Notes: generated from the sequence alone by a model not told the origin. A stretch of DNA of 64,000 nucleotides from Minisyncoccota bacterium (GCA_036405415.1 DASWXP010000002.1:208351-272350); one strand, 5' to 3'; shown: positions 6,930 through 48,310, counted from the stretch's first letter. Made by a program: numbers and translations.

Positions 6930-6993
6930 AGAATCAAGGTGCTTCTACCGCTATCAATAGACTAGCATTTTCATAGAAACCGCTCCCTGTGCA

Positions 6994-7881: not shown

Positions 7882-7905
7882 CTGATTCTTTCTGATTGCA
7901 AAAAC

Positions 7906-8991: not shown

Positions 8992-8992
8992 G

Positions 8993-9694
8993 TTATGGAC
9001 TTAGACGAATACTGTGCCTCTGAATCACGGAACGCAATTTTAATAAGGCAATCCATGCAGTGGGATGGCACTGCCTGATTTTTCCAGGACTAGTACAAAA
9101 GCACTTGCTCATTTCCGTTACCCGCTCTCTTCCCGAAAGAACCGCGCGTATGCGATCCCATTTTTTGTCCTTGCGCAGTTGACGGAGACACACCTGAACG
9201 TCCTCAACAGTTCCATTACCACTAGCGAAGGACTGGAAGACACCAGCTGCGCCATGCGCGTATTCTCCCCACGGCCACTTATGGTATTTGTCGAAATAAG
9301 TCTGCTCGTACAGGAAAGGGACTACGAGCTGATCGAGATACTTTATAAAAGAATAGCCTGTCCTTAGGAATTCTTGTTTCTCGACCGGTCCGCACAAGCA
9401 AGCATTACCACTCGTATAAAAGTGCCGATCTAGGACTTTTTCTATCGTGTCATCTTCCACTGTGAGGATAGGAATATCGTCAGCTTCCTTTCCTGGCTTA
9501 ATACGTATCTTATATGTCGCAGTAAGCACCTCACCTGGCGCAACCTGTCCGGACTGAATTAACCATGTAAAACCTGTCTTTGAATCGTACGCGGCAGTAA
9601 AAGTGAGACTGCCACTCACCTCACTACCGTCGGGACTAACGCTTAAGGTCGGGAGCTTTTCTTTAAGCCACTGCTTCTCACTTTCCGGAATCAT
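8993..9694 (-). CDS. prokaryotic E2 (UBC-fold)-like protein, candidate CBASS Cap2-short/E2-only component
   Basis: 'HFYTSGNACLCGP' resembles the E2 HPN..G.ICL active-site region. The start was set at MIPESEK (9694), overlapping the upstream stop by 17 nt. Confidence 0.4.
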   Translation of the reverse strand: MIPESEKQWLKEKLPTLSVSPDGSEVSGSLTFTAAYDSKTGFTWLIQSGQVAPGEVLTATYKIRIKPGKEADDIPILTVEDDTIEKVLDRHFYTSGNACLCGPVEKQEFLRTGYSFIKYLDQLVVPFLYEQTYFDKYHKWPWGEYAHGAAGVFQSFASGNGTVEDVQVCLRQLRKDKKWDRIRAVLSGRERVTEMSKCFCTSPGKIRQCHPTAWIALLKLRSVIQRHSIRLSP

Positions 9695-10592: not shown

Positions 10593-10601
10593 ACGATTCT
10601 T

Positions 10602-11771: not shown

Positions 11772-11772
11772 A

Positions 11773-11982
11773 CTATTTCTTTCTACGGTTGTATGGCGAC
11801 TGATTTGGCGGCGCAAGCTTAATCTTCTTTTCAGAAGCCTTCGCACGTACTCCTGCTTCAGGCCTACCGAGCTTAAGCCCAATCACGCGCGTTGGCGTAT
11901 TACCCTTTGCGAGCTCTTTGAGCTGCTTCACCTCTTCGGGGTTCCACTTCTTACCTGCATTTTTAATGTACTTCTTCGTCAT
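11773..11982 (-). CDS. small basic protein (69 aa), possible DNA-binding/regulatory component
   Basis: Tightly coupled between the LexA-like and Cap5-like genes; 'WNPEEVKQLKELAKGNTPTRVIGLKLGR' is helix-turn-helix-like. Confidence 0.4.
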   Translation of the reverse strand: MTKKYIKNAGKKWNPEEVKQLKELAKGNTPTRVIGLKLGRPEAGVRAKASEKKIKLAPPNQSPYNRRKK

Positions 11983-11984
11983 AC

Positions 11985-12632
11985 CTAAAATTGATTCTTA
12001 ATAATTCCCACTACTTTCCCGCTCAAGAGGAATTCATCGCCCTCATGAATGAAGATTGGTAGGTATTTCTCCGTTGAATCTGCCTCCAGTACGATGCGGT
12101 TGTGCGCCTTATCCTCGCGGTAACGCTTAATTGTGGCGAGTCCGTCGATCACCGCCACGACAATGTCCCCATTTCGGTATGTCTTCTGTTCGCTATCAAC
12201 CAACACGAAGTCACCACTTTCAATGGTCTTACCTGCTTCCACTTCCGCCTTGTTCATCGAATCGCCGTCAGCAATAAGAGCATAGAGACCCTTCTTGTTG
12301 CGCGGAAGAAGCGAAGAGGAAATCTTGAGATACTGATCCACGTTCTCCTCGGCAAAGATGGCTGCGGGACCGCAGTTCGCTGCACCAACCACAGGCAGAG
12401 AGTAGATTGGGCTCGGACTTGCCTTGCTGTACCCCTTGTTTACGAGACGAATTATCCCCTCTTCCAGATTCATCTGAATTAGTCCCGCCTTCTCAAGCTG
12501 CTGAAGGTGGTACTTGGCGGTCTGGGGCTTTCCTGCCGCGCCAAGCATGTCCGCGATCTTGCGCAGGCTGTAGGAACCGAAGTCCTTGTGGGTCGCAATG
12601 AGGTCTAGAAGCTGCTTTTGTATTCGATGCAT
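11985..12632 (-). CDS. LexA-family repressor (wHTH + S24 peptidase), first gene of the operon
   Basis: N-terminal wHTH, Ala-Ala/Gly cleavage-region analogue 'VVGAANCGPAAIF', Ser nucleophile 'GDSM', and Lys in 'TIKRY'. Confidence 0.8.
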   Translation of the reverse strand: MHRIQKQLLDLIATHKDFGSYSLRKIADMLGAAGKPQTAKYHLQQLEKAGLIQMNLEEGIIRLVNKGYSKASPSPIYSLPVVGAANCGPAAIFAEENVDQYLKISSSLLPRNKKGLYALIADGDSMNKAEVEAGKTIESGDFVLVDSEQKTYRNGDIVVAVIDGLATIKRYREDKAHNRIVLEADSTEKYLPIFIHEGDEFLLSGKVVGIIKNQF

Positions 12633-12654
12633 ACCCCTATTATAGCAAATCTCA

Positions 12655-12705
12655 GAGTAAAATGCAAATATTTATTTGACATTTTACACTCTTAGCAATT
12701 ATACT
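12655..12705. promoter_or_regulatory. divergent promoter region with dyad GAGTAAAATG-N15-CATTTTACACTC overlapping a TTGACA-18-TATACT promoter
   Basis: Inverted repeat 12655-12664 / 12681-12692; plus-strand -35 TTGACA at 12676-12681 and -10 TATACT at 12700-12705. The region is a candidate LexA-like operator between the repressor operon and the ParB-MTase gene. Confidence 0.4.
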
Positions 12706-12756
12706 TGAGACACAGAAAGAGGCATCTAGTTAAAAGCCTGCGATACTAGCTCCCGA

Positions 12757-14091
12757 TTGAGGAGACGTTCCCTTGAAAGAGGCGCGGTTGACCTTACAAC
12801 TAGATGTCACTGCCGTATGCAAAGACTCTCTTGGACTACGGTCCAGAAGCGAGTGAACGACCTCGTTCCCCAAGATGTGAATCCTCGTTCTATAACCGAC
12901 CATCAGATGGCGGATCTTAAGCGCAGTCTTAAGAAGTACAACTTGGTAGAGATTCCAGCCATCGATACCAATGGAAATATTCTCGCAGGTCATCAACGTA
13001 TCAAAGCGCTTCAGCTTCTTGGCCGAGGCGATGAACTAATAGATGTACGCTTCCCTTCTCGGAAGCTCACCGAGCAAGAGTCAAAAGAATATCTCATAGC
13101 CTCCAACAAGCTTGGCGGTGATTGGGACTTTGATCTTCTGAAATCGTTCGACCTAACCACGCTTGAATTCGCGGGCTTCGATGAGATAGAGATCGGAGAG
13201 ATATGGGACAAGGATAAGGAAGTAGCAGACGACGAGTTCGATGTTGAAAATGAGCTGAAACAAATTAAGAAACCCAAGACTAAGCTTGGAGACGTAATCA
13301 CTCTAGGCCACCATAGAATCCTCTGCGGAGACTCGACCAAATCTGAGAACCTTAAGCGGCTCCTGGGCAATCAGAAGGCTTCAATGATTTACTCCGACCC
13401 TGTCTATAATCTCGACATCAATTATGACGGTGGGGTTAGCGGGAATAAGGAGTACGGTGGCAAGGTAAACGATTCTCGCTCCTTCGAGGAATATCGAACC
13501 TTCCTGAGAGACAGTATGGAAGCGGCACTAGCCGTGTCCTCGAAAGATACCCATGTCTTCTACTGGTGCGATCAGGTATATATCGGCGTGGTTCAGGAGA
13601 TCTATAGAACGCTTGGCATAACCAATAAGCGCGTATGTCTCTGGCTTAAGAACAATCACAATCCAGTCCCTAGTGTGGCGTTCAACAAGGTATACGAGCC
13701 AGTAGTGTACGGAGTTCGTGGAAAGCCTTATTTAGCTGACACCATGCAGAATCTGAATGAGGTCATGAACAAGGAGATGAGCTCAGGGAATGACCTACTT
13801 GATGAAGTAGATGTCTGGACTGCAAAGCGTCTTTCAGCGAAAGACTATGAGCACGCCACCTCTAAGCCGCCTCAGCTCCACGAGCGAGCCATTAAGCGCT
13901 GCACGAAGCCAGGAGACATCATCCTTGATAGCTTCCTTGGATCAGGCAGTACGCTTATAGCCGGAGAGTCACTCGGTCGCAAGGTTTACGGCTGCGAGCT
14001 TGAACCGCAGTTCTGTGATCTTATCGTACGTAGGTACGAGAAGATGACAGGTAAGAAAGCAGTGTATGAAAAAGACCAAAGCACTGCTTGA
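12757..14091 (+). CDS. ParB-like nuclease domain fused to N6-adenine/N4-cytosine DNA methyltransferase
   Basis: ParBc motif 'ILAGHQRIKALQLLG', MTase motif IV 'DPVYN' and motif I 'FLGSGST'. The start is ambiguous (12757/12817/12907). Confidence 0.8.
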   Translation: MRRRSLERGAVDLTTRCHCRMQRLSWTTVQKRVNDLVPQDVNPRSITDHQMADLKRSLKKYNLVEIPAIDTNGNILAGHQRIKALQLLGRGDELIDVRFPSRKLTEQESKEYLIASNKLGGDWDFDLLKSFDLTTLEFAGFDEIEIGEIWDKDKEVADDEFDVENELKQIKKPKTKLGDVITLGHHRILCGDSTKSENLKRLLGNQKASMIYSDPVYNLDINYDGGVSGNKEYGGKVNDSRSFEEYRTFLRDSMEAALAVSSKDTHVFYWCDQVYIGVVQEIYRTLGITNKRVCLWLKNNHNPVPSVAFNKVYEPVVYGVRGKPYLADTMQNLNEVMNKEMSSGNDLLDEVDVWTAKRLSAKDYEHATSKPPQLHERAIKRCTKPGDIILDSFLGSGSTLIAGESLGRKVYGCELEPQFCDLIVRRYEKMTGKKAVYEKDQSTA

Positions 14092-14650
14092 TAGGCTTGT
14101 AGAAGAACTCGAGAAAACTCCACTGATCCAAATTGCTTGCGACAAAGTCGGTATTTCCAGAAACACCTTCTATCGCTGGATGAAGGAGGACGAGGACTTT
14201 CTCGCTCGTGTTAATGAAGCCGTATCACTAGGTACGGGTCTTGTTAGTGACGTGGCCATAAGCAACGTACTGGAAGGCATCAAGAAGAAAGATGCCATGT
14301 ATACGAAGTATTGGCTAAGCCACAAACATCCTGACTTCCGGCGACCATATGTTCATAGGATCGATGCAGATGATCTCCTTCTACACTCTCGCCTTCTTGC
14401 TGAAGGAGCTCAGAAACATAAGGTTGAGCAACAGATAGCGAATTCACGCGGGTACATCGATGAAGAGATGTCACGGAGACAGGAAGCAGAAGTCGATGAC
14501 TTTATGGAGAAGTGGGATCACATCGTAGCCAAGGGAGACGAAGAACGCGCCAAAGTCTTATTCGAGAAGTGGAAGAAGGAATACGAGACTCAAGTGCCAG
14601 ACACTCCTCCACCCGACAATAAGAAGCCTCGTAAGAAGAGCTGGCGGTAA
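14066..14650 (+). CDS. HTH protein, phage terminase small-subunit-like
   Basis: 'IACDKVGISRNTFYRWMKEDEDF' is an HTH typical of terminase small subunits; the C-terminus is acidic/basic. Confidence 0.45.
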   Translation: MKKTKALLDRLVEELEKTPLIQIACDKVGISRNTFYRWMKEDEDFLARVNEAVSLGTGLVSDVAISNVLEGIKKKDAMYTKYWLSHKHPDFRRPYVHRIDADDLLLHSRLLAEGAQKHKVEQQIANSRGYIDEEMSRRQEAEVDDFMEKWDHIVAKGDEERAKVLFEKWKKEYETQVPDTPPPDNKKPRKKSWR

Positions 14651-14893
14651 TTACTCTTTCCCTTGATCTGCAAGAAGCTTCTTCCCTACCGGAGAATCGA
14701 CTGGGATCATACCCGTTGATCCACACACTGGACATGCTTTATATCGAGAGGTTGATCGCCATATTGAGTAGATAACTCCCGGAATGATGAAGCAGAGGAA
14801 TAGAACTATCTCTATCAACATACTTCCCTTAATTGCCGTACGAGGACTACCTACGTGTCCGCATGACGCACATATCATTTCTTGCTTAGCCAT
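14651..14893 (-). CDS. small Zn-ribbon membrane protein
   Basis: 80 aa with two CxxC pairs (CASCGH, CPVCGS) flanking one TM helix. Confidence 0.45.
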   Translation of the reverse strand: MAKQEMICASCGHVGSPRTAIKGSMLIEIVLFLCFIIPGVIYSIWRSTSRYKACPVCGSTGMIPVDSPVGKKLLADQGKE

Positions 14894-14901
14894 TTTGTTG
14901 T

Positions 14902-15058
14902 TGGTTCGGTTTTGTAATTCCCGATGGCCAGATACACAAAAATCCCGCCACCAGGAGGACCCTTACGAGTATCCCTACCTAAGTTTCCCTAGGTAACCGA
15001 ACCAACGACCCTGATGACGGGGTTTTTACGTTGGTTCGGATTTTCGACCATATCCTTT
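14902..15058. repeat. three copies of GTTGGTTCGG(T/A)TTT (two direct, one inverted) upstream of the recombinase module
   Basis: Copies at 14902-14916 (+), 14995-15006 (reverse complement) and 15042-15058 (+). Confidence 0.35.
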
Positions 15059-15227
15059 GGAAACCAAAGGGGTTAGGCCATTTTTATTTAATTGTAGGCA
15101 GGTTCCCCTGCCGTCTTCTAATGGTATCGCAGTTCTTAGGGTTTGCTAAGCCTGTCCACGACCATGCGACGAATCCCTAGTTCTGCATAGACTATGCACC
15201 GGCCACCTGTCTGGCATCAATTACTAG

Positions 15228-15530
15228 GTGGAGGACAGGGACAAAATACTAGATAAAGCAGACCATTACCGTTTTACGAAAGAAGCCGACAGTGCCTACC
15301 TGAACCGTATTTCCTTTCTTCCCCACCCTAAGGAAGATCTGAAGCGGGCGATTATTGAACGGATTGAGGAGCTAATAGCCACCTACACCTCCCTGGCCAC
15401 CTACGTCCCTGATGAACTAATTGATTGGCTCAATACCCATCAAAGAACGAATAAAAATCGACGGGTCTACCTGAAAGTATTACGAGACATGGAGAGCCTC
15501 CGAAAGGAGGCTCTTACTAAATTGAAATAG
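15228..15530 (+). CDS. hypothetical protein immediately upstream of the serine recombinase (possible accessory/directionality factor)
   Basis: 100 aa, ending 6 nt before the recombinase ORF. Confidence 0.4.
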   Translation: MEDRDKILDKADHYRFTKEADSAYLNRISFLPHPKEDLKRAIIERIEELIATYTSLATYVPDELIDWLNTHQRTNKNRRVYLKVLRDMESLRKEALTKLK

Positions 15531-15536
15531 CGATAT

Positions 15537-16859
15537 ATGCAAACAGATCAATTTTCAGCCTTAATAGGCCAAGCAAACATACCCATAGCAGTTAAGGTTA
15601 AGTACGTCCTCTATGCCCGTAAATCTACCGAGTCCGACGAGAAGCAAGCACTGTCCATAGATTCTCAAGTGAAGGAGATGATGCAAATAGCCGAACGGGA
15701 GAATCTGGAAATCGTAGATATAAGACGAGAAGCCCATTCAGCCAAAGACTCAGGGCAAAGACCCGTATTCAAAGAAATTCTAGAAGACCTAAGAAGAGAA
15801 CGATTCAATGGAATCCTGGTCTGGCATCCCGACCGTTTAAGCAGAAACGCTGGTGATCTTGGGTCAGTCGTAGATCTAATGGATGAGAGACGGCTAGTCC
15901 AAATACGCACGTATGGACAGACATTTACGAATACACCGAGCGAGAAGTTTCTCCTGATGATTCTGTGTTCCCAAGCAAAACTAGAAAATGACAATAAAAG
16001 TATCAACGTAAAACGAGGACTGAAGACGAGAGTAGAAATGGGACTCTGGCCAGCTCCTGCCCCAACTGGATATCTCAAAGAAAAACGAATGGACCGAAAA
16101 TGCGAGACATTGATAGATCCAGAACGAGGACCGATTATAAAGAAAGTTTTCGAGAAAGTAGCGTATGAGAAGTGGAGTGGCAGGAAGATCTATAACTGGC
16201 TCAAGTTTGATCTGAACTTTAAGACCGCTGCGGGAAACAAGAATCTGAGTCTAAGTAACATTTTCACCATCCTTGAAAATCATTTCTATTACGGAGTATT
16301 TGAATATCCGAAGAACTCGGGAAACTGGTATCAGGGCAAACACGAGCCACTTGTTTCCAAAGAGCTGTTCGATCTAGTTCAGGAGCAGGTTAAGAGCCAG
16401 TTCGTTAGATCGGAGAATAAGGAGTTTGCGTTTACTCGACTAATTACCTGTGGCCTTTGTGGCTCGGGAATAACGGCTGACGAGAAGTTTAAGAAGCAGA
16501 AGAACGGGAATGTTCATCGCCACGTCTACTACGGATGTAACAAGTCAAAAGATAGAGCGTGCAAGAGCGGCTATATAAATGAGCCAGCACTTATAGATCA
16601 ATTCGTGGAACTTATGGATCGAATAGATATTAGCGAGATAGGAGTTAAGGAAAAGATAAAGTCTGAGGTTGAGCGACTGAGGAAATTCCAGCAGTCTTTT
16701 CTGGGCATTAAGAGTAAAACTGAGATCAGGGATATAGATATACGGAACTATGCAAAATACCTTCTGCGCGAAGGAGCTGATACTGAAAAACGAGAATTAC
16801 TCGGATGTTTAAGGAGCAAGATTCTTTTAAAGGAGAAAGTCATTACTTTATCTCCATAA
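15537..16859 (+). CDS. large serine recombinase (resolvase catalytic domain + recombinase domain + Zn ribbon)
   Basis: 'YARKSTESDEKQALSIDSQ' catalytic Ser region, 'VWHPDRLSRN', and a C-terminal 'CGLCGSGITADEK...YYGCN...C' zinc ribbon. Confidence 0.85.
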   Translation: MQTDQFSALIGQANIPIAVKVKYVLYARKSTESDEKQALSIDSQVKEMMQIAERENLEIVDIRREAHSAKDSGQRPVFKEILEDLRRERFNGILVWHPDRLSRNAGDLGSVVDLMDERRLVQIRTYGQTFTNTPSEKFLLMILCSQAKLENDNKSINVKRGLKTRVEMGLWPAPAPTGYLKEKRMDRKCETLIDPERGPIIKKVFEKVAYEKWSGRKIYNWLKFDLNFKTAAGNKNLSLSNIFTILENHFYYGVFEYPKNSGNWYQGKHEPLVSKELFDLVQEQVKSQFVRSENKEFAFTRLITCGLCGSGITADEKFKKQKNGNVHRHVYYGCNKSKDRACKSGYINEPALIDQFVELMDRIDISEIGVKEKIKSEVERLRKFQQSFLGIKSKTEIRDIDIRNYAKYLLREGADTEKRELLGCLRSKILLKEKVITLSP

Positions 16860-16860
16860 C

Positions 16861-16888
16861 AAAAAGAGGCCCATATGGGCCTCTTTTT
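16861..16888. terminator. bidirectional rho-independent terminator AAAAAGAGGCCCATATGGGCCTCTTTTT
   Basis: Perfect 9-bp GC-rich stem flanked by A5/T5, between convergent genes. Confidence 0.7.
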
Positions 16889-16904
16889 GTTAGCTCTATG
16901 CTGT

Positions 16905-17531
16905 CTAGATTAGAATCAATAACAGTCCTGCTAGTGCCGCCATTCCAAAGTCCTCAATGAGAGTAATCTTGGTAAGCGGTACTTTAAGGAACGTACCCAG
17001 ACACGCACACAAGAATTCTTCCTTGCGAGCAATCTTGATAGCGACTCCAAGGCCGCTGAATAGCATAACAAGAAGCTCTACCCAGAGCAGAGCTGGGTTA
17101 TGTATTCCAGCAAGCATGAGGAGACCGAATGCGAGTTCAAGGAATGGATAGATATATCCATATCCCATCCACTTCTGCGCCAATAGGTCATACGTTGAAT
17201 ACCCCTCAGCGAATCCCTTTAGATCTAGGAGCTTGAAGCCTGCAAAGACGATAAAGAATCCTGCCATGAAGTACCCGATGGTACTGGTGAGCGCAAAGGT
17301 ATCGTTGTAGTAGTCAGCTAGAGATACGGCAATGGTTGATGCCGTCAGGAGGCTGAAGATAACGATAAGCGGTATATAACTCTTCCAAGTTATTGGACCC
17401 AGTCCTCGATCTTCCATTACATGCTTGGGCGTTGCTTTTTCGCTACCTTCAGGCACGAGAACCATCCCACACTTAGGACACTTACCAGGACCTTCCTGGC
17501 GAATCTCTGGATGCATCGGACAGATATACAT
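16905..17531 (-). CDS. heavy-metal-binding domain (CPMHPE...CPKCGM) fused to DoxX/MauE-like membrane domain
   Basis: N-terminal 'YICPMHPEIRQEGPGKCPKCGM' is a Cu/metal-binding HMBD-type motif. The remainder is 4-TM DoxX-like. Confidence 0.55.
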   Translation of the reverse strand: MYICPMHPEIRQEGPGKCPKCGMVLVPEGSEKATPKHVMEDRGLGPITWKSYIPLIVIFSLLTASTIAVSLADYYNDTFALTSTIGYFMAGFFIVFAGFKLLDLKGFAEGYSTYDLLAQKWMGYGYIYPFLELAFGLLMLAGIHNPALLWVELLVMLFSGLGVAIKIARKEEFLCACLGTFLKVPLTKITLIEDFGMAALAGLLLILI

Positions 17532-17533
17532 AC

Positions 17534-18007
17534 TTAGATTGGTTCGTAGCTAATAACGATGTGTTCCCCATCTTTGAGTACAGTGTTTTCGTAGGTATCT
17601 ACCCCTGTACCATCTACGGTAATACGTATTCGATGTGTAGCATCTGCTTTGTAGCTGAGGATCTCATCTTTGCTGAATGGCTGATCCCATACCGCGAAGA
17701 AGTCTGAGAGCGTGAAGTCCCGTTTCTCAGGAGACTCGACATGGATGACTCCATCAGGCGTATGCGTGTGGAGTGCTGTCATGCACGTCTGCTGAACGCC
17801 AATATTTGATGGAACAGGGACGTTCTCTCCATTCGCCACGATTTCGAGCATTGGATGAATATGGAATCCTCCGGCCATTTCGTCATCGCACAGAAGTGCT
17901 AGCTCACGATTCGTAAGTTCCCCTATCGGCTTCTGTGGACTTTGGGAGAAATACAGCAATGCTCCTATTACTGCAATAAGAGAAACAATAATAATTGCGC
18001 TCTTCAT
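17534..18007 (-). CDS. membrane-anchored hypothetical protein (His-rich motifs)
   Basis: N-terminal TM helix; HIHPM and HTHTPDGVIH could bind metal. Confidence 0.4.
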   Translation of the reverse strand: MKSAIIIVSLIAVIGALLYFSQSPQKPIGELTNRELALLCDDEMAGGFHIHPMLEIVANGENVPVPSNIGVQQTCMTALHTHTPDGVIHVESPEKRDFTLSDFFAVWDQPFSKDEILSYKADATHRIRITVDGTGVDTYENTVLKDGEHIVISYEPI

Positions 18008-18008
18008 C

Positions 18009-18407
18009 TTACTGTCCGTACCAAGACGTTTTCCAATCCTGCATCTGCTTTATCTCAGTGTTCTGGGCAGTAATAATGTTCTGCGCCATATCCTTAATCT
18101 CTTGATGCTTCGCATTCTGGAGCGCGAGCTGTGCCATTTGTACCGCCCCCTGATGATGCATAATCATCTCGGTAAGGAAGGCCTGGTCGAAAGCATCTCC
18201 TGTCTTACCGTTAAGTGCCTGCATCATTGAATCCATTTCTCCCTGCATGCCACTGTTCGAACCGCCCATCATTGAGCCGTCAGGCATCATATGTCCACCA
18301 GTTGCCTGCTGCGGAGCTACCGGTGCCTTACTTGCGGCTAGTGCATAGCCACCTCCTGCACCGATAATGAGCGCAATAAGACCAACTACAATTACATTCT
18401 TTTCCAT
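18009..18407 (-). CDS. DUF305 family protein with Met-rich segment (copper-resistance associated)
   Basis: 'FLTEMIMHHQGAVQMA' is the DUF305 signature; the Met-rich 'GGHMMPDGSMMGGSNSGMQGEMDSMM' resembles CopC/PcoC-like Cu-binding tracts. Confidence 0.65.
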   Translation of the reverse strand: MEKNVIVVGLIALIIGAGGGYALAASKAPVAPQQATGGHMMPDGSMMGGSNSGMQGEMDSMMQALNGKTGDAFDQAFLTEMIMHHQGAVQMAQLALQNAKHQEIKDMAQNIITAQNTEIKQMQDWKTSWYGQ

Positions 18408-18444
18408 AAGATTTAGTTAGATTGAGTAAGAAGAAAGTAGTCGC

Positions 18445-18813
18445 TTATGGAGCTTTTGGATTAAGAATGCCGCTGGAGAAAAGTTCTTGTAGAAGCGGTG
18501 TAGCAGGATAGAAGCGCCTACGATACCCGGGCGGGCGCTCAGGCTTCGGGACGGCAAGCCAAAACCATGCGAGCGCAAGAACCGGCACTATAAAAGTAGG
18601 AATTTCTAGAGGGAGAGCTGTAAACGTAGACTGCCAACTACTAAGATGATCAAAAATTGACATAGGACACATAGAAGTCTCGCCCTGCATGAATGGGCAA
18701 CCGCCCATACTGTGATCCATAGGCATAGCCATGAAAACCAACATAAAAAGTGGCACAAGCCCGACAAGTACAATTGACGTCCAGGACAGGAGCTTTTTAG
18801 CACTTATAGACAT
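18445..18813 (-). CDS. membrane protein with Met/Cys-rich motif, hypothetical
   Basis: 'MAMPMDHSMGGCPFMQGETSMCPMS' lies between TM helices. Confidence 0.4.
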   Translation of the reverse strand: MSISAKKLLSWTSIVLVGLVPLFMLVFMAMPMDHSMGGCPFMQGETSMCPMSIFDHLSSWQSTFTALPLEIPTFIVPVLALAWFWLAVPKPERPPGYRRRFYPATPLLQELFSSGILNPKAP

Positions 18814-18865
18814 ATGTCTCTAGTATACCGCTTCTGGTTCTAGCATAGAGCTATACTTTATTTAT

Positions 18866-19315
18866 ATGAAAATGACCAATATGTATGCTCGGTTCGGACT
18901 CATGATACTCATCTCCTTTGCTGCCATGTACATTTTGATGTACGCCATGGTGAATGTGCTTGGAAATGCGCTTCCGAACTGGAATCAGTTTTATATGGCA
19001 GGACTCATGACTTCCCCGATGATAGTGCTTGAAATGCTCTTCATGGGAACGATGTATGGGAATAAGAAATTGAATATAGGAATTATTGTTGGAGGTTTGG
19101 TTTTGCTTGTTATTTTTTGGATAAGTATTAGGCAGCAAGTCGGTATATCTGATGAGCAATTTCTGAAGTCCATGATTCCGCATCACGCCGGAGCAATCTT
19201 GATGTGCAGTAAGACTAAGCTTCAAGACCCAGAGCTGAAAGCACTCTGTACTGGCATTACATCAGGTCAGCAGGGTGAGATCGAGTTTATGAAATCAAAA
19301 CTAAATGGAATGTAG
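18866..19315 (+). CDS. DUF305 domain membrane protein
   Basis: 'MIPHHAGAILMC' DUF305 motif following three TM helices. Confidence 0.6.
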   Translation: MKMTNMYARFGLMILISFAAMYILMYAMVNVLGNALPNWNQFYMAGLMTSPMIVLEMLFMGTMYGNKKLNIGIIVGGLVLLVIFWISIRQQVGISDEQFLKSMIPHHAGAILMCSKTKLQDPELKALCTGITSGQQGEIEFMKSKLNGM

Positions 19316-19502
19316 GCGGACCTCGTGGCTACAGATTTAAAGCCAACTGCCCTCTGCTAAAATCCTCAACCATACTGAATAAGGTCTTTTGTTAGAGGGG
19401 TTCGAATCTTAACTACTTCGCACGGGATTAGGACTCGAATTTCGAGCTTCAAAATGCCTTTTGTTTATTGACGCGTCTCGAGCGCGATAACCTAGCACGA
19501 GT

Positions 19503-19576
19503 TGGCTGGGAGACTAGGGATCGAACCTAGATTGACGGGACCAAAACCCGGTGTCCTACCATTAGACGATCTCCCA
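19503..19576 (-). tRNA. tRNA-Gln (anticodon UUG)
   Basis: The cloverleaf was folded by hand. Acceptor is TGGGAGA/TCTCCCA, anticodon loop UUUUGGU, T-loop GGTTCGATCCC, with G73 and an encoded CCA. It aligns with E. coli tRNA-Gln. Confidence 0.85.
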
Positions 19577-19614: not shown

Positions 19615-20505
19615 CTAGGATGCGCACGCTTCTCTAAGCGCAGCCAGGTCCTCTTCGGTGAGCGAAACCGAGATACCGAAGTTGTACGGATACATCAAAG
19701 ACTCTGGATCTTCGGTGTGCCCGATCCCGAGCGCGTGTCCGAACTCATGCGCGAGCACACGCACCAGCTCCTCACGGCTCTCGAACGTATATACCGTAAT
19801 CTGTTCAGAATCCCCGTCTGCGGTGTAGTGTCCTTGGTCGAAATCGTGCCCGAGCGTCTCGTTGAATATCTCTGCGTTCTGGTTCAGCCGCTCCACGAGA
19901 CCGTTCAAGGACCCGACGCGAACGTTAATATCCCTTCCTAAGGATTCGATACGTGCCGCCTCGCTCCCAAGGCTCGCCTGCTGCCTCTCGAGCGTCGCCT
20001 TGCGCACCGCGAACTGCGCGTACACGGACGGCGGCGCGCCCCCGCGATCGTTCCAGGACGCTACATCGCGCTCGTACTGGGCGACATCCGCTTCGTACTT
20101 CGATACTGCTCGTTCGTAAGATGTCTTTAGTTCTTCGTATCGAGTCCTAAGATTATCTATCTCCTCCTTCATGGCGCGGTACTCCTGCTGCCCCGCTTCG
20201 ATGGAATCCCCGAGCGCGAGCGCTTCCTGCCGCTCGTCGTACACGAGCGATATGCCTATGCCAGTATCGCCCCTTCGGAATAGTTCCTTGCCCGCGGCCT
20301 CGTTCCAGACCTGAGCCGCCTCTTCAGCTGCAGTTATAAACGCCTCCTGAGAGAGCTCGAACCGAGGATCAGGAGAAAGCACGGTGTATGCGATAGGCTC
20401 TGCGCATCGCGGCGGATCCTTGATGTCCGAGAGCGCGTAGTGCGCGACTAAGCCGACGAGCGCCACCGGAAGCAGGTAGCGGAAAATGGGCGCGAGCATA
20501 CGCAT
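19615..20505 (-). CDS. matrixin-like zinc metalloprotease (metzincin)
   Basis: 'HEFGHALGIGHTEDPESLMYP' gives HExxHxxGxxH plus a Met-turn; a long coiled-coil linker; N-terminal TM helix. Confidence 0.7.
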   Translation of the reverse strand: MRMLAPIFRYLLPVALVGLVAHYALSDIKDPPRCAEPIAYTVLSPDPRFELSQEAFITAAEEAAQVWNEAAGKELFRRGDTGIGISLVYDERQEALALGDSIEAGQQEYRAMKEEIDNLRTRYEELKTSYERAVSKYEADVAQYERDVASWNDRGGAPPSVYAQFAVRKATLERQQASLGSEAARIESLGRDINVRVGSLNGLVERLNQNAEIFNETLGHDFDQGHYTADGDSEQITVYTFESREELVRVLAHEFGHALGIGHTEDPESLMYPYNFGISVSLTEEDLAALREACAS

Positions 20506-32811: not shown

Positions 32812-33663
32812 TTGCCCACCATGAGTACTTCCGGGGACCCTTCCCCCATCATCTGCATCGCAGGCCCTACCGCGTCCGGGAAATCAAGGCGCGCCGTAGA
32901 GCTCGCCAAGGAACGGGACGGCGAGGTCATCTCCGTGGACTCGCGCCAGGTGTACCGGATGCTCGATATCGGTACGGAGAAGACCAGTAAAGAAGAGATG
33001 GATGGCATCCCGCACCACCTGATCGACATCATTGACCCCAAGGACACCTACAGCGCCGGTGATTTCGTGCGAGACGCGTCTCGGCTGATCGAGGAGATCC
33101 GGTCCCGCGGCAAGCAGCCAATCCTCGCTGGCGGAACCCATTTCTATTTCGATGCGCTCATATACGGACTGCCGGAAACCGCTCCTCAGAACCCAACATT
33201 GCGCGATGCGCTCGAGACGCGCTCCTGCGACTCGCTTATGGACGAACTGAGGACGCGAGATCCGCGACGCGCAGAACGTATCGATCCGAACAATAAGCGC
33301 CGCCTCATGCGCGCGCTTGAAATACTCGAGTCCCACGGACATGTCCCTGAACGCACTCTAGGGACGCCGAAGTATGAGATTGAATGGGTGCTCCTGAATC
33401 CTGAACGCGACGAGCTTAGAGCGCGCATTGCTGCGCGCCTCGAGAAGGCGCTTGAGAGCGGACTCATCGAGGAGACGAGACGCGTACGCGCATATGTAGG
33501 CGATACGCGCCTCAACGAGCTCGGGCTCGAATACAGGATCGTAGGCGAATACCTGCGCGAGGAACGCAGCGAGGAATCCCTTTTACCGTCCCTTTCTACC
33601 AAGGTCTGGCACTATGCGAGGCATCAGAAGGCATGGCTTCGTAAGATAGCCCAGGATTCCTAG
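32812..33663 (+). CDS. miaA: tRNA dimethylallyltransferase
   Basis: P-loop 'IAGPTASGKS' and 'DSRQVYR..DIGT'. Confidence 0.85.
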   Translation: MPTMSTSGDPSPIICIAGPTASGKSRRAVELAKERDGEVISVDSRQVYRMLDIGTEKTSKEEMDGIPHHLIDIIDPKDTYSAGDFVRDASRLIEEIRSRGKQPILAGGTHFYFDALIYGLPETAPQNPTLRDALETRSCDSLMDELRTRDPRRAERIDPNNKRRLMRALEILESHGHVPERTLGTPKYEIEWVLLNPERDELRARIAARLEKALESGLIEETRRVRAYVGDTRLNELGLEYRIVGEYLREERSEESLLPSLSTKVWHYARHQKAWLRKIAQDS

Positions 33664-34559
33664 CGTCCGCTTGGCGACCAGTGGACCGGATCGTCACGCA
33701 GCGTATTCCTAAAATTCCAGCGGTGGCCGTTATTCTTAAGCCAGTTGTACGTGCGCGTGTTACAGCTGCTGTTTCCGTTGCTGCACCCGACGTCAATATC
33801 TACCGCTTCGCCCGAATTATGGTTCGAGCCGTTGCCGCCGAGCGAGCATGGGCGCGCGACCGCGCCGATCTCGCTGCGCCTATTCCAGAGAGATACCTGG
33901 CTCGCTTCGGATCGGTAGGCACTCGTTACCTTGAGATCTATATTGTCTCTGGCTGCCGCTGCGCGCATCGCCATGAAATTGGTGACGGTCGCCTGCGTAG
34001 CTTTACCTGATCCACCAGCCACTGCAGCTGCCGGGAACGCAACCATAGTGGACTCATCCGCCGCAGGGCAGTTCGCGCCGGTACCCGTGACTACACGGTC
34101 ATCGACCTCGGCTCCCGGCGTCGCCGTTATGTTTCCGTCGAACAACGACTTGTTGTCCTTTGACTCGATGCATGAGGGACCTGACCCGTTAAGCAGGATC
34201 GTATTCCACGGACCGAACTGTCCTCCGTACAGCGTCTTCATCACGAAGTCCACAATGAGCCACGCGGAGAGGGTTATGAGAAGGCCCACGACGGCATTGA
34301 TGAGCATCTTGTTCGCGGTGCCGCGGTTCTCAGGATTCGTCGGCGACAGAACGTACAGGATGCCTCCCCACACGAGGATGATGGTCGCGAAGATGATCGC
34401 GATACCGATCGCGAAGTTCACTAAATTCTGAATGATGGCGAGCACCCCGCCGAATCCGCACGGACACTGGCGGCAGGCTTCCGGAACGATAGGACCGAAC
34501 TGCGCTTGCGCAGAAAGCGGCAGCAAGGCAAGAGCGATGAATAGCGCGGCGCGGGTCAT
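33660..34559 (-). CDS. secreted pilin-like (VirB2/TrbC-type 2-TM) N-terminal module fused to peptidase M15 (VanY/D-Ala-D-Ala carboxypeptidase-like) domain
   Basis: Signal peptide plus a two-TM module 'VLSPTNPENRGTANKMLINAVVGLLITLSAWLIVDFVMK'. The C-terminus has 'SAYRS', 'HNSGEAVDIDV' and 'DDPVHW', which form the M15 zinc-ligand pattern. Confidence 0.6.
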   Translation of the reverse strand: MTRAALFIALALLPLSAQAQFGPIVPEACRQCPCGFGGVLAIIQNLVNFAIGIAIIFATIILVWGGILYVLSPTNPENRGTANKMLINAVVGLLITLSAWLIVDFVMKTLYGGQFGPWNTILLNGSGPSCIESKDNKSLFDGNITATPGAEVDDRVVTGTGANCPAADESTMVAFPAAAVAGGSGKATQATVTNFMAMRAAAARDNIDLKVTSAYRSEASQVSLWNRRSEIGAVARPCSLGGNGSNHNSGEAVDIDVGCSNGNSSCNTRTYNWLKNNGHRWNFRNTLRDDPVHWSPSGR

Positions 34560-35107
34560 GGAAGTTCTACGGCGCCTTCACAGGAAGCGAACTCAAGATC
34601 GTAGTCAGGAGGATAGAGATCGTTCACGCCGGGACCTGCCACGACATTCGCATCGAGCTTGCAAAGGTCTGAGCGGGATATCTGCAATCTTTCAAGGAGC
34701 GCTTGTGCTGCCGCTTCGCGCGTCTCGCCGAGAGGTTCCGCCAGCAGCGTCACGAGGAACTCTCCTTGGGGCGAGTCCTGATCCGGCTCGATATACGTGA
34801 TGAGATAGGAATCCATCGGGCTTCCGGCAACCTGATACTCCTGCTGGCTTACCCAATCAGGCTGCGGAACGGCACTGAAGTCAGGGACACTGACCGTAGT
34901 GCCGTCGCTAAGCGCAAGGCTCCGCTCGCCACTCGCGATAGTGCCTGAGCCTATGCCGAGAAAAGGATTCTGACCTCCCGGCTGCTGAGACACTTCAGGA
35001 GACGCGTCTTTTGGAACGAGCACAACGTAGAGAATGCCGACCGCAAGCACCAGCAGGAGCAGGCCAGCTAGTATCATCCCTATTCCGAAGATTCTTGAGG
35101 AGTGCAT
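34556..35107 (-). CDS. membrane-anchored hypothetical protein between the two PG-hydrolase fusions
   Basis: N-terminal TM helix 'IFGIGMILAGLLLLVLAVGILYVVL'. Start set at MHSSRIF to avoid overlapping the upstream gene. Confidence 0.4.
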   Translation of the reverse strand: MHSSRIFGIGMILAGLLLLVLAVGILYVVLVPKDASPEVSQQPGGQNPFLGIGSGTIASGERSLALSDGTTVSVPDFSAVPQPDWVSQQEYQVAGSPMDSYLITYIEPDQDSPQGEFLVTLLAEPLGETREAAAQALLERLQISRSDLCKLDANVVAGPGVNDLYPPDYDLEFASCEGAVELP

Positions 35108-35126
35108 AGACGTATCGTACCACTTG

Positions 35127-36155
35127 CTATCGACCGAACTGGCAGCTCGGGTGGTCGACGCGCCGAGCATTCGGCACGCCGCAGCGCTGCGCGGAGCAGG
35201 CCCAGGCGCTCAGGTTAGAGGTATACAGGTTCTGCGCGGCGCGCGTATTCTTCGCCGGATTGAGCGCCGCGGCCGTACAACGATCGAAAAGTTCCTGATT
35301 CGTCACCCGCTGACTGCACCAGCCGACGCGACCCTGGTTGCGGATAGCATCTCCCGAGCACGGTCCGCTGAACGCAGCGCGGCAATCCATGCCCCAGCCA
35401 GCAGCCTCGGTGTCCGTAGTGGTGAGATTGATCTGCCACAGGCCCCAAGAATAGCTCGGTCCCCTGCCGCTATTGAGCTTGTCGGAACCGCTCGGCACCG
35501 AACGGCCGCCGCTCTCTTTGTTGCAGACGCGGGAGGCGTGCTCTCCGAGCGCTTCGAAGCGGGTGCCGCGCAGGCTCGCGAGGCTGCAAGGATGATTATC
35601 AATGACCGGCACGGAGCACTGGCCGCCGCCGGCCCTGCCGCCGCCCGGAAGCTGCATCGGGGTCCCCACGATGGTTCCCGAGAAGAGCGGCGTCGAGCTG
35701 GCTGCTACGACGCAGTAATCTCCGCCGGTTATGATCTCGTTCCATGGACCGAACCCGCCATTATCGTTGTAAAGAAGCTTCATCACGAAATCGACGATGA
35801 GCCACGCGGAGAGGATTATGAGGAGCCCTATCACGGCATTCGTGAGCACCTTCTTCGCCTGGGAATGATTCTCCGGATTCGTCGGCGTAAGGATCCAGAG
35901 CATGCCTGCGAACGCGATGATGAGCACGAAGATAACTATGCCAAAAGATATCGCGGCATTCATGCCGTTCTGAATGAGCTGCAGGAATCCTGCGAATCCG
36001 AGCGGAGCGCCTACGGGACAATCAGGATCAAGCTCATGCGCTTCAGGCACGAGCTGCCATTCCGGATCGAAGAGCGGCAGATTGGACTGCGCGCTTGCGA
36101 GCGCAGGTACGAGTAGAAGGAACGCGATAAGGAACGGAGCCCAGAGCCGCTTCAT
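35127..36155 (-). CDS. secreted pilin-like N-terminal module fused to lytic transglycosylase (SLT/GH23-like) domain
   Basis: The N-terminal module is nearly identical to that of 33660-34559 ('ILTPTNPENHSQAKKVLTNAVIGLLIILSAWLIVDFVMK'). The C-terminus has 'NKESGG...SYSWGLWQIN...AAQNLY', which is the ES...GLMQ...Y pattern of SLT. Confidence 0.6.
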   Translation of the reverse strand: MKRLWAPFLIAFLLLVPALASAQSNLPLFDPEWQLVPEAHELDPDCPVGAPLGFAGFLQLIQNGMNAAISFGIVIFVLIIAFAGMLWILTPTNPENHSQAKKVLTNAVIGLLIILSAWLIVDFVMKLLYNDNGGFGPWNEIITGGDYCVVAASSTPLFSGTIVGTPMQLPGGGRAGGGQCSVPVIDNHPCSLASLRGTRFEALGEHASRVCNKESGGRSVPSGSDKLNSGRGPSYSWGLWQINLTTTDTEAAGWGMDCRAAFSGPCSGDAIRNQGRVGWCSQRVTNQELFDRCTAAALNPAKNTRAAQNLYTSNLSAWACSAQRCGVPNARRVDHPSCQFGR

Positions 36156-36232: not shown

Positions 36233-36303
36233 GGGTCCATAGTTTAGTGGTAGAACATCGGTCTCCAAAACCGATAGTGTAGGTTCGATTCCTACTGGGC
36301 CCG
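36233..36303 (+). tRNA. tRNA-Trp (anticodon CCA)
   Basis: Acceptor GGGTCCA/TGGGCCC with one G-U pair, anticodon loop CUCCAAA, T-loop GGTTCGATTCC. Confidence 0.8.
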
Positions 36304-36325
36304 CCTTATTGAAGCAAGAAGCTTC

Positions 36326-40218: not shown

Positions 40219-40962
40219 TTACGCGCCTTCCGCAAGGAGAACGTTAATACGTTCTGCCGGCGCGAAGAGGCCCGGGACGGAGGTCGCGATGCCGATGAGG
40301 TCGCCTTCTATGTTCACGGCGGCTGCCCCCGCCGGCACGCCGGTCACGTTCGCACGGATACCCGCTTCCTCGACGATGGAGATGATGCCGGAGACCGCAG
40401 CGCCTCCGCCCGTAAGCGACACGAGGGTCTGTCCCTGGCTCAGGTCCTTGGACGCGACGATGTCAGGTATCGCGACGTTCGGGAGGCCCGCCGTATCCGA
40501 GAAGCCGTAGATGGTGAGGGTCGCGCCGCCCTTGGACAAGGAAGCCTCGGCGCTCGCGCCGTTCGCGAACATGATCGTCGCCTCCTTAGGAAGCGCGGCA
40601 CCAGTCGCGGTAACGACCGCGCGCTTGTCAGGAAGGTAGGTCCCGATCGCGATCGCAGGCGTGGTGGTCGCGCCCTTATGGATCGTGACGCGGCGCGATA
40701 CGTCCGCACGGATCGCGCCTGAAAGAAGGTCCTCGTCGCGGATAACCACGGTCTCCTTCGGCGGAAGGATGTTCGGAAGCGGCGTGGTCTCGGCGGCCGT
40801 CTCGACGGTACGCTCGACGATGCGGTTCACGGTCTGCGTGACCGTAGGCGGCGCCTGATCCAAGAGCGACACGGTCATCACGGCAGTCGCGATCGCGGTC
40901 ACGAAATTCACCAGGATCGTGAGAAGCAGGAGCTGGGTCTTGTTGAGGTCCTCGATGTTCAT
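40219..40962 (-). CDS. membrane-anchored hypothetical protein (Ala/Gly-rich beta-rich C-terminal domain)
   Basis: N-terminal TM helix; 'TGGGAAVSGII' is faintly trypsin-like but has no catalytic Ser. Confidence 0.35.
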   Translation of the reverse strand: MNIEDLNKTQLLLLTILVNFVTAIATAVMTVSLLDQAPPTVTQTVNRIVERTVETAAETTPLPNILPPKETVVIRDEDLLSGAIRADVSRRVTIHKGATTTPAIAIGTYLPDKRAVVTATGAALPKEATIMFANGASAEASLSKGGATLTIYGFSDTAGLPNVAIPDIVASKDLSQGQTLVSLTGGGAAVSGIISIVEEAGIRANVTGVPAGAAAVNIEGDLIGIATSVPGLFAPAERINVLLAEGA

Positions 40963-46399: not shown

Positions 46400-46648
46400 T
46401 TAGTTCGCCCCTACGGTTGCCTTGAGGATGGAGACGATGGCGTTGGCCCCGAAGATGATGACGAGGCCGATGATGCCCCAGATCATGTGCTGCTGTCCGG
46501 TCCTGCGCTTTTCCTCGTCCTCCGCGCCCGCGATGAACTCCACGATACCCCACATGAAGACCACGAATGCGCCGAGCGCGAGCAGAGTGATAATCGGTGT
46601 GAGGATGGCGTCCTGCACCTTGGTGATGAATTGCTGGAAGGGGCTCAT
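46400..46648 (-). CDS. VirB2/TrbC-like pilin-family small membrane protein (paralog 1)
   Basis: 82 aa with TM1, a charged loop 'AGAEDEEKRRTGQQ', then TM2 'MIWGIIGLVIIFGANAIV'. Confidence 0.5.
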   Translation of the reverse strand: MSPFQQFITKVQDAILTPIITLLALGAFVVFMWGIVEFIAGAEDEEKRRTGQQHMIWGIIGLVIIFGANAIVSILKATVGAN

Positions 46649-46707: not shown

Positions 46708-47073
46708 TTAGTTAACGATGACCGACGGGGTCACGTCGCCTACCGGAGGCGCGGTGTTGGTGGTCTGGAAGGTGCCGCGAAGGATGTTCACGAGACCCCA
46801 GACGGATACCATCACGAAGAAGCCGATGATGCCCCAGAGCATGAGGCTCTTGCCGTTCTCGCGCTTCTCTTCGTCCGCACCGCCCATAATGAAGTACTGG
46901 AACACGCCCCAGATGAACACGATGAAAGCGATAGCGAACACGAGCGGCACGAGCACGTTGTTGATGAGGCTGATGATGCCCTGGCCGATAGAGCCAGCGT
47001 TCGTTGCCGTGACCTGAGCGGACACGAAGAACGGGAACGCGAGAGCGGCAGCAAGATAACCGAGTTTCTTCAT
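46708..47073 (-). CDS. VirB2/TrbC-like pilin-family small membrane protein (paralog 2)
   Basis: Signal peptide, TM1, 'GGADEEKRENGK', then TM2 'LMLWGIIGFFVMVSVWGLVNIL'. Confidence 0.55.
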   Translation of the reverse strand: MKKLGYLAAALAFPFFVSAQVTATNAGSIGQGIISLINNVLVPLVFAIAFIVFIWGVFQYFIMGGADEEKRENGKSLMLWGIIGFFVMVSVWGLVNILRGTFQTTNTAPPVGDVTPSVIVN

Positions 47074-47165: not shown

Positions 47166-47582
47166 CTAGAGGAATGTGTCGTCGTCGTTGAGGTTTGGGG
47201 TCTGGGAACCACCGGTGCCCGGCGTGAATCCTGGAAGGTTCGGGACCTGGTTATCAAGCCTGAACGTTCCCCTCACGATGTTCACGAGGCCCCAGACAGA
47301 TACCATCACGAAGAAGCCGACCACGCCCCAGATCGCCAGCTGCTTTCCCTGCGCGCGCTTCTCTTCGTCTGCGCCTCCGGCGATGAAGTAGAGGAAGAGG
47401 CCCCAGATGAACGCGAGGAACGCGAGCGCGAACACCAGCGGGATCAGCACGCCGCCTATGAAGCGCGTGATGCTCTGGAGCATGGACGGGATGGTGTTCC
47501 CGGATATCTCGTACTGCGCGTACGCGGACGAGGCTGACAGCAGGAACAGGGCGAACGAGAAGAATGCGGTTCGGAGAATCAT
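47166..47582 (-). CDS. VirB2/TrbC-like pilin-family small membrane protein (paralog 3)
   Basis: Signal peptide, TM1, 'GGADEEKRAQGK', then TM2 'LAIWGVVGFFVMVSVWGLVNIV'; near-identical core to paralog 2. Confidence 0.55.
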   Translation of the reverse strand: MILRTAFFSFALFLLSASSAYAQYEISGNTIPSMLQSITRFIGGVLIPLVFALAFLAFIWGLFLYFIAGGADEEKRAQGKQLAIWGVVGFFVMVSVWGLVNIVRGTFRLDNQVPNLPGFTPGTGGSQTPNLNDDDTFL

Positions 47583-47621: not shown

Positions 47622-47927
47622 TTATGCACTGAGGGCCCCCGGGATAAGGGTAAGAAAGAGCCGGACGATGCCCCAGACCGAGAACATCACCACCAGACCA
47701 ATGATGCCCCACAGCATGAGCGCCTTCCCTTTTTGGCGGTTCTCTTCTCCGCCCATGAAAAGGAACCGCGCCATGCCGATGAAGAAGAACAGCAGCGCGA
47801 GCGCGTACAGGAGCGGCATGACTGCCGTATTCACGATGCTCACGATGCTGGCCGTGAACTCCTTGAAGCTCGCGGCACGCGCGAGAGCCGGCGTGAGCAT
47901 TAGGAAGGCTGCGACAAGGTACCGCAT
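47622..47927 (-). CDS. VirB2/TrbC-like pilin-family small membrane protein (paralog 4)
   Basis: 'FMGGEENRQKGKALMLWGIIGLVVMFSVWGIV'. Start set at MRYLVAAF, 2 nt after the upstream stop. Confidence 0.5.
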   Translation of the reverse strand: MRYLVAAFLMLTPALARAASFKEFTASIVSIVNTAVMPLLYALALLFFFIGMARFLFMGGEENRQKGKALMLWGIIGLVVMFSVWGIVRLFLTLIPGALSA

Positions 47928-47929
47928 GA

Positions 47930-48310
47930 CTAGCGCAGAGAATTCACCGTACCTTCGATCACGAGCTGGATCGAGGTAGCGCCAAGGAGGATGAGACCGC
48001 CGATAACGGTCCACACCAGCGCGCTCTTAGCGCTCTGAAGCTTCTCGGCATTGCCTCTTGCAACCACGAACAGGAAGCCCACGTACACGAGCATCATGAT
48101 GAGGACTATGGTACCGATCTGTACGACGCCGCCGAGGATCGCCCGGAGAAACTCAGGGAGGGTTGAGACGCCGTTAAGCGGATTCACGAGCCCTCCTCCG
48201 GAGGTCGAGGTGCCGGTATTCGTTATAACCTCGGCGTGTGCCGCAAACGGCGCATACAGGAGCGTGAGGAGCACGGTATGCGAAAGAGAGCGAGTGAGTA
48301 TCCGGTTCAT
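47930..48310 (-). CDS. VirB2/TrbC-like pilin-family small membrane protein (paralog 5, divergent)
   Basis: Signal peptide, TM1 'ILGGVVQIGTIVLIMMLVYVGFLFVV', loop 'ARGNAEKLQSAKS', TM2 'ALVWTVIGGLILLGATSI'. Confidence 0.45.
   Translation of the reverse strand: MNRILTRSLSHTVLLTLLYAPFAAHAEVITNTGTSTSGGGLVNPLNGVSTLPEFLRAILGGVVQIGTIVLIMMLVYVGFLFVVARGNAEKLQSAKSALVWTVIGGLILLGATSIQLVIEGTVNSLR

Follow-up and report, generated by a model that had tools for sequence, protein, structure and literature searches.

In the current study, we describe two neighbouring genes, A and B, of an ultra-small Minisyncoccota bacterium of the Patescibacteria (GCA_036405415.1, DASWXP010000002.1:208351-272350; this whole stretch of 64,000 nucleotides is called the window below), each of which joins an N-terminal pilin-like module to a C-terminal domain predicted to degrade peptidoglycan. 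Based on domain identities, topology (hydropathy and structural model), conserved catalytic residues, synteny and the swapping of the enzyme-encoding cassette, A and B are very probably two exported peptidoglycan hydrolases, tethered by a hairpin of the T4SS (type IV secretion system) pilin family and belonging to a large polymorphic family of the Patescibacteria. We more tentatively propose that the hairpin brings both enzymes into the T4SS-pilin pathway and that the wall would be cut where the pilus passes. An initial annotation of this DNA had read the pair as pilin-anchored enzymes of a surface apparatus that breaches peptidoglycan, and this interpretation is partly supported, being largely right on anatomy and unproven on function. 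Both genes are real and were recovered on the minus strand at the coordinates that it had given (Table 1).

A pilin module shared by two predicted wall hydrolases

The N-terminal modules of A and B are 47% identical across 160 amino acids (BLASTP, E = 6e-37), which is far beyond chance. They had been described as almost identical, and this holds for the quoted core, PTNPEN..DFVMK..LY, in which 30 of 39 residues agree between A and B (77%; nucleotide identity 78%), but not for the modules overall, which are homologous at the lower value given above. By segment, the identity amounts to 42% in the signal peptide, 57% in the N-terminal segment, 35% in the first transmembrane (TM) helix (TM1), 57% in the loop, 87% in TM2 and 40% in the juxtamembrane segment FGPWN..C..PLFxGxIxxxPG, while the C-terminal domains are only 17% identical. 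The 30 identical codons of the shared core contain 9 synonymous differences, and we thus conclude that the core is kept by purifying selection; recent gene conversion as its source is ruled out.

Hydropathy analysis of both proteins gave a cleavable-looking signal peptide (AQA/Q in A, ASA/Q in B) followed by two TM helices with a short, Arg/Lys-containing loop between them, and AlphaFold2 modelled a long helical hairpin in each (helices 36-71/76-111 in A and 54-89/94-128 in B). Taken together, the two approaches give the order signal peptide, helix-loop-helix hairpin, disordered linker and confident globular domain. The VirB2/TrbC-type pilin topology that had been proposed for the module (signal peptide, TM1, loop, TM2) is borne out by these results and by the matches to PF18895 (T4SS_pilin) of 44.4 bits for A and 36.3 bits for B, both above the gathering cut-off of 26.6. 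The matches to PF04956 (TrbC/VirB2) stay under the cut-off of 27.9, with 17.6 bits for A, 13.8 bits for B and 20-26 bits for homologues of both families, so that the kinship of A and B to TrbC/VirB2 is remote. Sub-cut-off matches of fused and stand-alone pilin modules were also found to NCBIfam NF045849, the 'Mbov_0395 family pilin-like conjugal transfer protein' of Mycoplasma integrative and conjugative elements (E = 6e-10 to 2e-5). These matches are an independent sequence link between the pilins of the Candidate Phyla Radiation (CPR) and the T4SS of wall-less monoderms, and they fit the view published in PMC12102498 of a kinship between the T4SS of Patescibacteria and the MPF-FATA class of monoderms.

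TM2 shows the highest conservation of all segments in either family, with a mean pairwise identity of 69-77% (77% in the B family), and the enzyme domains are lower at 41% (B family) and 61% (A family). The PF18895 matches place the shared module in the VirB2-like T4SS_pilin family and not among generic signal anchors, and both C-termini are predicted peptidoglycan-hydrolase folds that retain conserved catalytic residues.

Catalytic domains and the middle protein

The C-terminus of A matches PF02557 (VanY) at 47.9 bits (cut-off 25), and profile searches of the PDB matched it to the solved structures of LdcB, VanY and Ply500 (E = 7e-8 to 4.5e-7), as did Foldseek to BaLdcB (4mph, E = 2.7e-6). 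The M15 zinc ligands read earlier from the motifs SAYRS, HNSGEAVD and DPVHW hold up across 74 homologues, in which R216, H247 and D254 never vary and D290 and H293 reach at least 90% conservation. With LdcB and VanY (MEROPS M15B) and Ply500 (M15C), A shares the fold and the H-x6-D...H ligands of the LAS zinc site, and it differs in the acid three residues ahead of the last His, which is Asp (D290, giving DxxH) and not Glu, as well as in the N-terminal pilin module, which is new to LAS peptidases. DxxH is the form of Ply500-type enzymes and ExxH that of VanY and LdcB, a comparison of motifs and not a residue-by-residue one with A. The sequence and fold comparisons confirm the C-terminus of A as a VanY/LdcB-type LAS zinc peptidase domain with conserved catalytic residues.

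For B, an SLT-like catalytic pattern had been proposed, of which the ES and GLWQ motifs stand, with E214, G238 and Q241 invariant in 77 homologues. The canonical SLT identity was rejected, since the domain has no HMM match to PF01464, and no AYNxG-type motif was found in it although ES and GLWQ are present; B was re-classified as divergent lysozyme-like, or SLT_3-type, with C-type lysozyme as its probable closest structural neighbour. Within the lysozyme superfamily (PF18896 SLT_3, GH22, GH23) it stands apart, scoring 12.8 bits against PF18896, under the cut-off of 27; its full-length homologues P0114, P0041 and P0016 reach 28.9, 25.4 and 22.6 bits. A PDB profile search with B gave nothing significant, and Foldseek gave no PDB match at E <= 0.001 and no lysozyme among the weaker matches listed. 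Alignment of B with hen lysozyme by hhalign covered only the GLxQIN strand at low probability, and in this low-confidence alignment the residue opposite Asp52 is Ser, so that B may work with a single carboxylate, as lytic transglycosylases and g-type lysozymes do. As judged from its sequence, the C-terminus of B is a divergent lysozyme-like domain with Glu214 as putative catalytic residue, and not a canonical SLT. On the plus strand, antisense to gene B, an open reading frame (ORF) of 360 amino acids (35034-36116) is without independent support and counts as a shadow ORF arising from a high-GC gene.

A third gene, absent from the initial annotation, is sandwiched between B and A, and its stop codon overlaps the ATG of A, so that B, the middle gene and A look like one operon. 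This operon is flanked by a plus-strand tRNA-Trp (36233-36305) upstream and by a convergent miaA downstream, and no further operon gene follows A in the window. The middle protein has one TM helix and an outside domain of ~140 amino acids with 2 invariant Cys; it evolves fast, and only 11 homologues were found. It has no match in Pfam, NCBIfam, PHROG or PDB, and an identity as a VirB8-like or other known protein was set aside for lack of a signal in these databases. NCBI already lists proteins of the same sequence as A and B, from a 622-kb contig of a Candidatus Paceibacterota metagenome-assembled genome, under the names 'D-alanyl-D-alanine carboxypeptidase family protein' and 'MAG TPA: pilin [Candidatus Paceibacterota bacterium]', respectively.

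A family of pilin-hydrolase fusions

Both A and B have more than 200 homologues at E <= 0.001, and the source names and record titles seen for them are those of Patescibacteria, with one exception ('Rectinemataceae', P0069). A hidden Markov model search with the module recovered 23,512 representatives of 50%-identity clusters at E <= 1e-3 (103 at E <= 1e-30), and the best 150 matches are nearly all proteins of 300-450 amino acids with the module at the N-terminus. PF18895 was present in each of the 142 diverse representatives scanned with Pfam, and their C-terminal domains were VanY (9), SLT_3 (6), CHAP (5), canonical SLT (3) and DUF4329 (1), the remainder being unrecognised; a true SLT domain on a pilin module is found in, for example, P0320. 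Clustering of the homologues separated 7 classes of C-terminus, and at least 10 when the diverse representatives were added. These results support that the fusion of module and hydrolase is systematic, spanning at least 10 C-terminal classes and hundreds of Patescibacteria proteins, and that the identifiable classes are wall hydrolases. No description of pilin-hydrolase fusions was found in the open-access literature, an absence that is not proof, and the portion of the text of PMC12102498 that was searched has no mention of hydrolase fusions.

Besides the fusions, we observed 'poly-pilin' proteins, i.e., single ORFs of 5-17 tandem T4SS_pilin hairpins (P0271 with 583 amino acids, P0353 with 552 amino acids, P0274, P0334, P0360, P0365, P0376 and P0381). 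The sequences of P0271 and P0353 run without gaps or stops. These proteins could be processed polyproteins or covalently concatenated pilins.

A conserved site with an exchangeable enzyme half

Eight related loci (L001-L007, L011) carry the order B-type gene, middle gene, A-type gene at one site, between clpB and miaA-prx-parB-relA-topA, a syntenic position that the cassette occupies in many Paceibacterota. The closest relatives of the window, L004 and L007, have B enzyme domains that are 83-88% identical and A modules that are 82-84% identical to its own, whereas their A enzyme domains are unrelated to VanY, the one in L004 being Cys...His peptidase-like and the one in L007 a different His/Asp/His domain. 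The DNA similarity to the window breaks off at 34109 (codon 150) in L004 and at 34164 (~codon 132) in L007, and restarts inside miaA at 33641 and 33646, respectively. With its break at the boundary of module and enzyme in A and its restart in miaA, this pattern indicates that the enzyme half behaves as a cassette that can be exchanged. All cassette variants have a homologous middle gene, which is thus not swapped together with the enzymes.

In L004, an extra protein of 142 amino acids with an N-terminal hydrophobic segment is encoded directly after the Cys-peptidase variant (L004:6867-7295), and the VanY and other variants are without it. A candidate role for this protein is that of an inhibitor or immunity partner. 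The more distant loci L012 and L013 keep the site and gene A and have no recognisable gene B, the slot of which holds two small unannotated ORFs in L012 (8761-9811) and nothing in L013 (9280-10000), so that the pair of A and B is not obligatory.

Five stand-alone T4SS_pilin genes lie ~10 kb from the cassette in the window, and they were also recovered by tblastn with the modules of A and B. L011-L013 likewise have stand-alone pilin genes, located at the upstream end of the locus and ~9-10 kb away from the cassette. The five pilins of the window are candidate major pilins of the same system as A and B.

Table 1. Genes, domains and stand-alone pilins of the window, numbered from its first nucleotide
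Feature	Position	Strand	Description
Gene B	35127..36155	-	342 amino acids; signal peptide, T4SS_pilin module and lysozyme-like domain; ORF, PF18895 E = 6.1e-9
Signal peptide of B, residues 1-22 (..ALASA/QS)	36090..36155	-	hydrophobic residues 4-22, then AxA motif; inferred cleavage site
Pilin module of B, residues 23-166	35658..36089	-	N-terminal segment, TM1, PTNPEN loop, TM2, FGPWN juxtamembrane motif; end ..PLFSGTIVGTP
Lysozyme-like catalytic domain of B, residues 187-342	35130..35597	-	putative catalytic Glu214; GLWQIN; 10 Cys
Middle gene	34556..35107	-	183 amino acids from Met at 35107; mechanical ORF to 35170; bitopic, C-terminal end ..LP
Gene A	33660..34559	-	299 amino acids; signal peptide, T4SS_pilin module and VanY/LdcB-type M15 zinc peptidase (predicted); PF18895 E = 1.8e-11, PF02557 E = 1.5e-12
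Pilin module of A, residues 20-150	34110..34502	-	end ..LFDGNITATPG
LAS/M15 peptidase domain of A, residues 171-299	33663..34049	-	R216, H247, D254, D290-x-x-H293
Five stand-alone T4SS_pilin genes	47930-48310, 47622-48014, 47166-47582, 46708-47073, 46400-46648	-	PF18895 E = 7e-8 to 2.4e-12

Comparison with known systems

A and B resemble the PF18895/VirB2-TrbC pilins in their signal peptide, two-TM hairpin, short Arg/Lys loop and above-threshold HMM match, and in having stand-alone paralogues nearby. The known pilins, however, are proteins of ~70-130 amino acids without an enzymatic domain, to which A and B add a juxtamembrane segment, a linker and a hydrolase of 130-160 amino acids; the stand-alone pilins of the window are without the FGPWN..C..PLFxGxIxxxPG segment of A and B. 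According to PMC12102498, VirB2-like pilins occur widely across the Patescibacteria, VirB2 was called by means of PF18895 in 3,035 of their genomes, pilin arrays were noted, and most VirB2-positive genomes are without VirB1. In Table S1 of the same source, Parcubacteria C7867-004, which carries the cassette with an orthologue of A (P0144), is listed as VirB4-positive.

In polymorphic toxin and effector systems, as in the family of A and B, a constant N-terminal module is combined with a C-terminal domain that is exchanged in situ between close relatives. The present family differs from them in that its identifiable C-termini are all wall hydrolases, that no immunity gene is clearly exchanged with the enzyme, and that the locus is chromosomal, core and syntenic.

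TraG of pIP501 and PrgK of pCF10, two VirB1-like hydrolases of monoderms, are anchored in the membrane by an N-terminal TM segment. In A and B the activities lie on two proteins, each with a pilin module instead of a plain TM helix, the peptidase is of LAS/M15 type and the glycosidase is divergent lysozyme-like (both as predicted), and the genes lie outside any T4SS operon in all loci examined. The likeness consists in the combination of a glycosidase and a peptidase, which is tied to a T4SS in these monoderm VirB1-like hydrolases (PMC12102498), and in the SLT and CHAP domains, which are combined in monoderm VirB1-like proteins (PMC12102498) and also occur on related pilin fusions.

Possible functions of the pilin-tethered enzymes

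In the coupling to a T4SS pilus that we tentatively prefer, the operon would supply a muralytic pair, with B as the glycan cutter and A as the stem-peptide cutter, together with a small bitopic partner. Each enzyme would be exported by Sec and would lose its signal peptide, after which the VirB2-type pilin hairpin would hold it in the membrane with both ends outside, and a Gly/Ser-rich linker of ~20-40 residues would give the catalytic domain access to the wall. The hairpin may then enter the same T4SS pilin pool and the same assembly site (VirB4/VirB6, which would be encoded elsewhere in the genome), and peptidoglycan would be cut where the pilus passes, which amounts to a VirB1-like task divided between two enzymes on pilin tethers. 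Export and cleavage, the coupling to the pilus and the choice of the wall are the steps that we infer. As the hairpin is of the same family as the five nearby pilins and TM2 is its most conserved segment, it is presumably not a passive anchor. The constraint on TM2, kept by purifying selection above what an anchor needs, thus counts for this coupling, as do the pilin homology of both modules (PF18895 above the cut-off, PF04956 and NF045849 below it), the SLT/CHAP repertoire in common with monoderm VirB1-like enzymes, the five pilins of the window and those upstream of the cassette in L011-L013. The published VirB4-positive status of C7867-004 and the need of S. epibionticum for VirB2-like pilins in epibiotic growth also count for it.

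Several observations weigh against it. A search of the 64-kb window for VirB4, VirB6, VirD4, VirB11 and type IV pilus ATPase genes, which the initial annotation had suggested in part, found none, and no T4SS core gene (VirB4, VirB6) lies within 10 kb of the cassette in 11 related loci. All window ORFs of at least 500 amino acids are housekeeping genes (ABC-F, TopA, RelA/SpoT, ClpB, GyrA), and the neighbours of the cassette are housekeeping genes (clpB, miaA, prx, parB, relA, topA) in every genome examined. In structure searches the hairpin of A and B was indistinguishable from other helical hairpins, the T-pilus VirB2 (8exh) being found only at E = 5.2. LdcB/VanY enzymes typically trim stem peptides as carboxypeptidases and do not open the wall as endopeptidases, and to our knowledge no experiment shows that the 'T4SS pilins' of the CPR polymerise. 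Besides, Paceibacteria, unlike other classes, have conventional VirB1 homologues associated with virB4 (PMC12102498), which makes the gap left by a missing VirB1 less compelling for this class.

On the other hand, A and B might be housekeeping autolysins on a passive anchor derived from a pilin, remodelling the producer's own wall so that it can grow and divide, with the middle protein as a regulator and no link to a T4SS. The lack of T4SS genes in the window is consistent with such a role, as are the maintenance of the locus among core genes in widely diverged genomes, the LdcB/VanY fold, which is typical of wall maturation enzymes, and the retention of gene A alone in some genomes (L012, L013). 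We consider it somewhat unlikely, because an anchor in which TM2 is more conserved than either catalytic domain would be unusual for a passive one, and because the enzyme half of A gives way to unrelated peptidase folds among relatives that still share 83-88% identity in the enzyme domain of B. Different folds may cut different bonds, and such turnover would be odd for a core maturation enzyme; nor does a purely domestic role sit easily with a module that is found on at least 10 C-terminal classes, of which every identifiable one is a wall hydrolase.

This exchange of the enzyme half in situ, with DNA breakpoints within ~20 codons of the junction between module and enzyme in close relatives, and the many alternative hydrolase classes on one conserved module would rather suit effectors directed at a host, in which the module would co-polymerise as a minor subunit into the VirB2-like pilus, the outward termini would carry the glycosidase and the peptidase to the host wall, the cassette would be swapped, as in polymorphic toxin systems, to match the chemistry of that wall, and the small neighbouring proteins would serve as inhibitors or immunity factors. 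The extra small secreted gene after the cysteine-peptidase variant in L004 points the same way, and epibiotic growth of Saccharibacteria requires T4SS and pilin genes (for pilin arrays, in S. epibionticum, the one species tested; PMC10633639, PMC12857230), while T4SS pilins are among the most highly expressed genes of unknown function in parasitic Paceibacteria (PMC10936435). However, every variant has a homologous middle gene that, unlike classical immunity genes, is not exchanged with either enzyme type, no gene follows A in the window, a domain of ~150 amino acids may be hard to fit in a pilin polymer, and some hosts of Paceibacteria are archaea, which are without murein (PMC10936435), so that we regard effectors of this kind as unlikely. 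Equally doubtful is the proposal that the fusions are minor subunits of a VirB2-like, 'muralytic' pilus that would digest the host wall at the contact site, with a cassette that would track the peptidoglycan chemistry of the host and act as a determinant of host range. The remnant of a phage lysis cassette, made of endolysins and a holin-like two-TM segment, would account for two hydrolases beside a small membrane protein and for the weak matches of the peptidase domain of A to phage endolysin PHROGs (E ~1e-5), but no PHROG matched B, the middle gene or the N-terminal modules, the modules matching the pilin family instead; the GC content of the cassette is that of the host genome, its synteny among core genes is kept in 11 related loci from other genomes, and the real mobile island of the window lies elsewhere (~5.4-19.5 kb). 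This origin is highly improbable and was rejected on the PHROG results and the synteny.

Other features of the window

The island extends from 5400 to 19576, where it ends at a tRNA-Gln (19503-19576, minus strand), and has a GC content of 45-49% compared with ~60%. It contains a CBASS-like pair (SMODS, 9678-10592; HNH-SAVED, 10602-11882), a LexA/S24-like repressor, an N6/N4 DNA methylase, a small-terminase-like helix-turn-helix protein, a large serine recombinase (15537-16859) and an HMBD/MauE membrane protein, and is probably an integrated mobile element with anti-phage defence in a CPR genome. Just beyond its boundary, 19615-20505 (minus strand) encodes a matrixin-type (M10) zinc metallopeptidase domain with a hydrophobic N-terminus. 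A protein of 247 amino acids with an N-terminal TM segment and no Pfam match is encoded at 40219-40962 (minus strand), and a protein of 240-250 amino acids, again with no Pfam match, occupies the equivalent place beside clpB in the related loci that extend this far (L003, L005, L006 and L011-L013), a correspondence judged by position.

Implications for Patescibacteria

The occurrence of the pilin module in enzymes calls for caution with counts of 'VirB2 pilins' that are based on PF18895, as these include enzymes. Overall, the widespread family of pilin-hydrolase fusions offers a concrete and testable link between the Patescibacteria pilus and the breaching of a wall, which may be the cell's own or that of a host, and the swap of the enzyme half in situ is a candidate determinant of host specificity.

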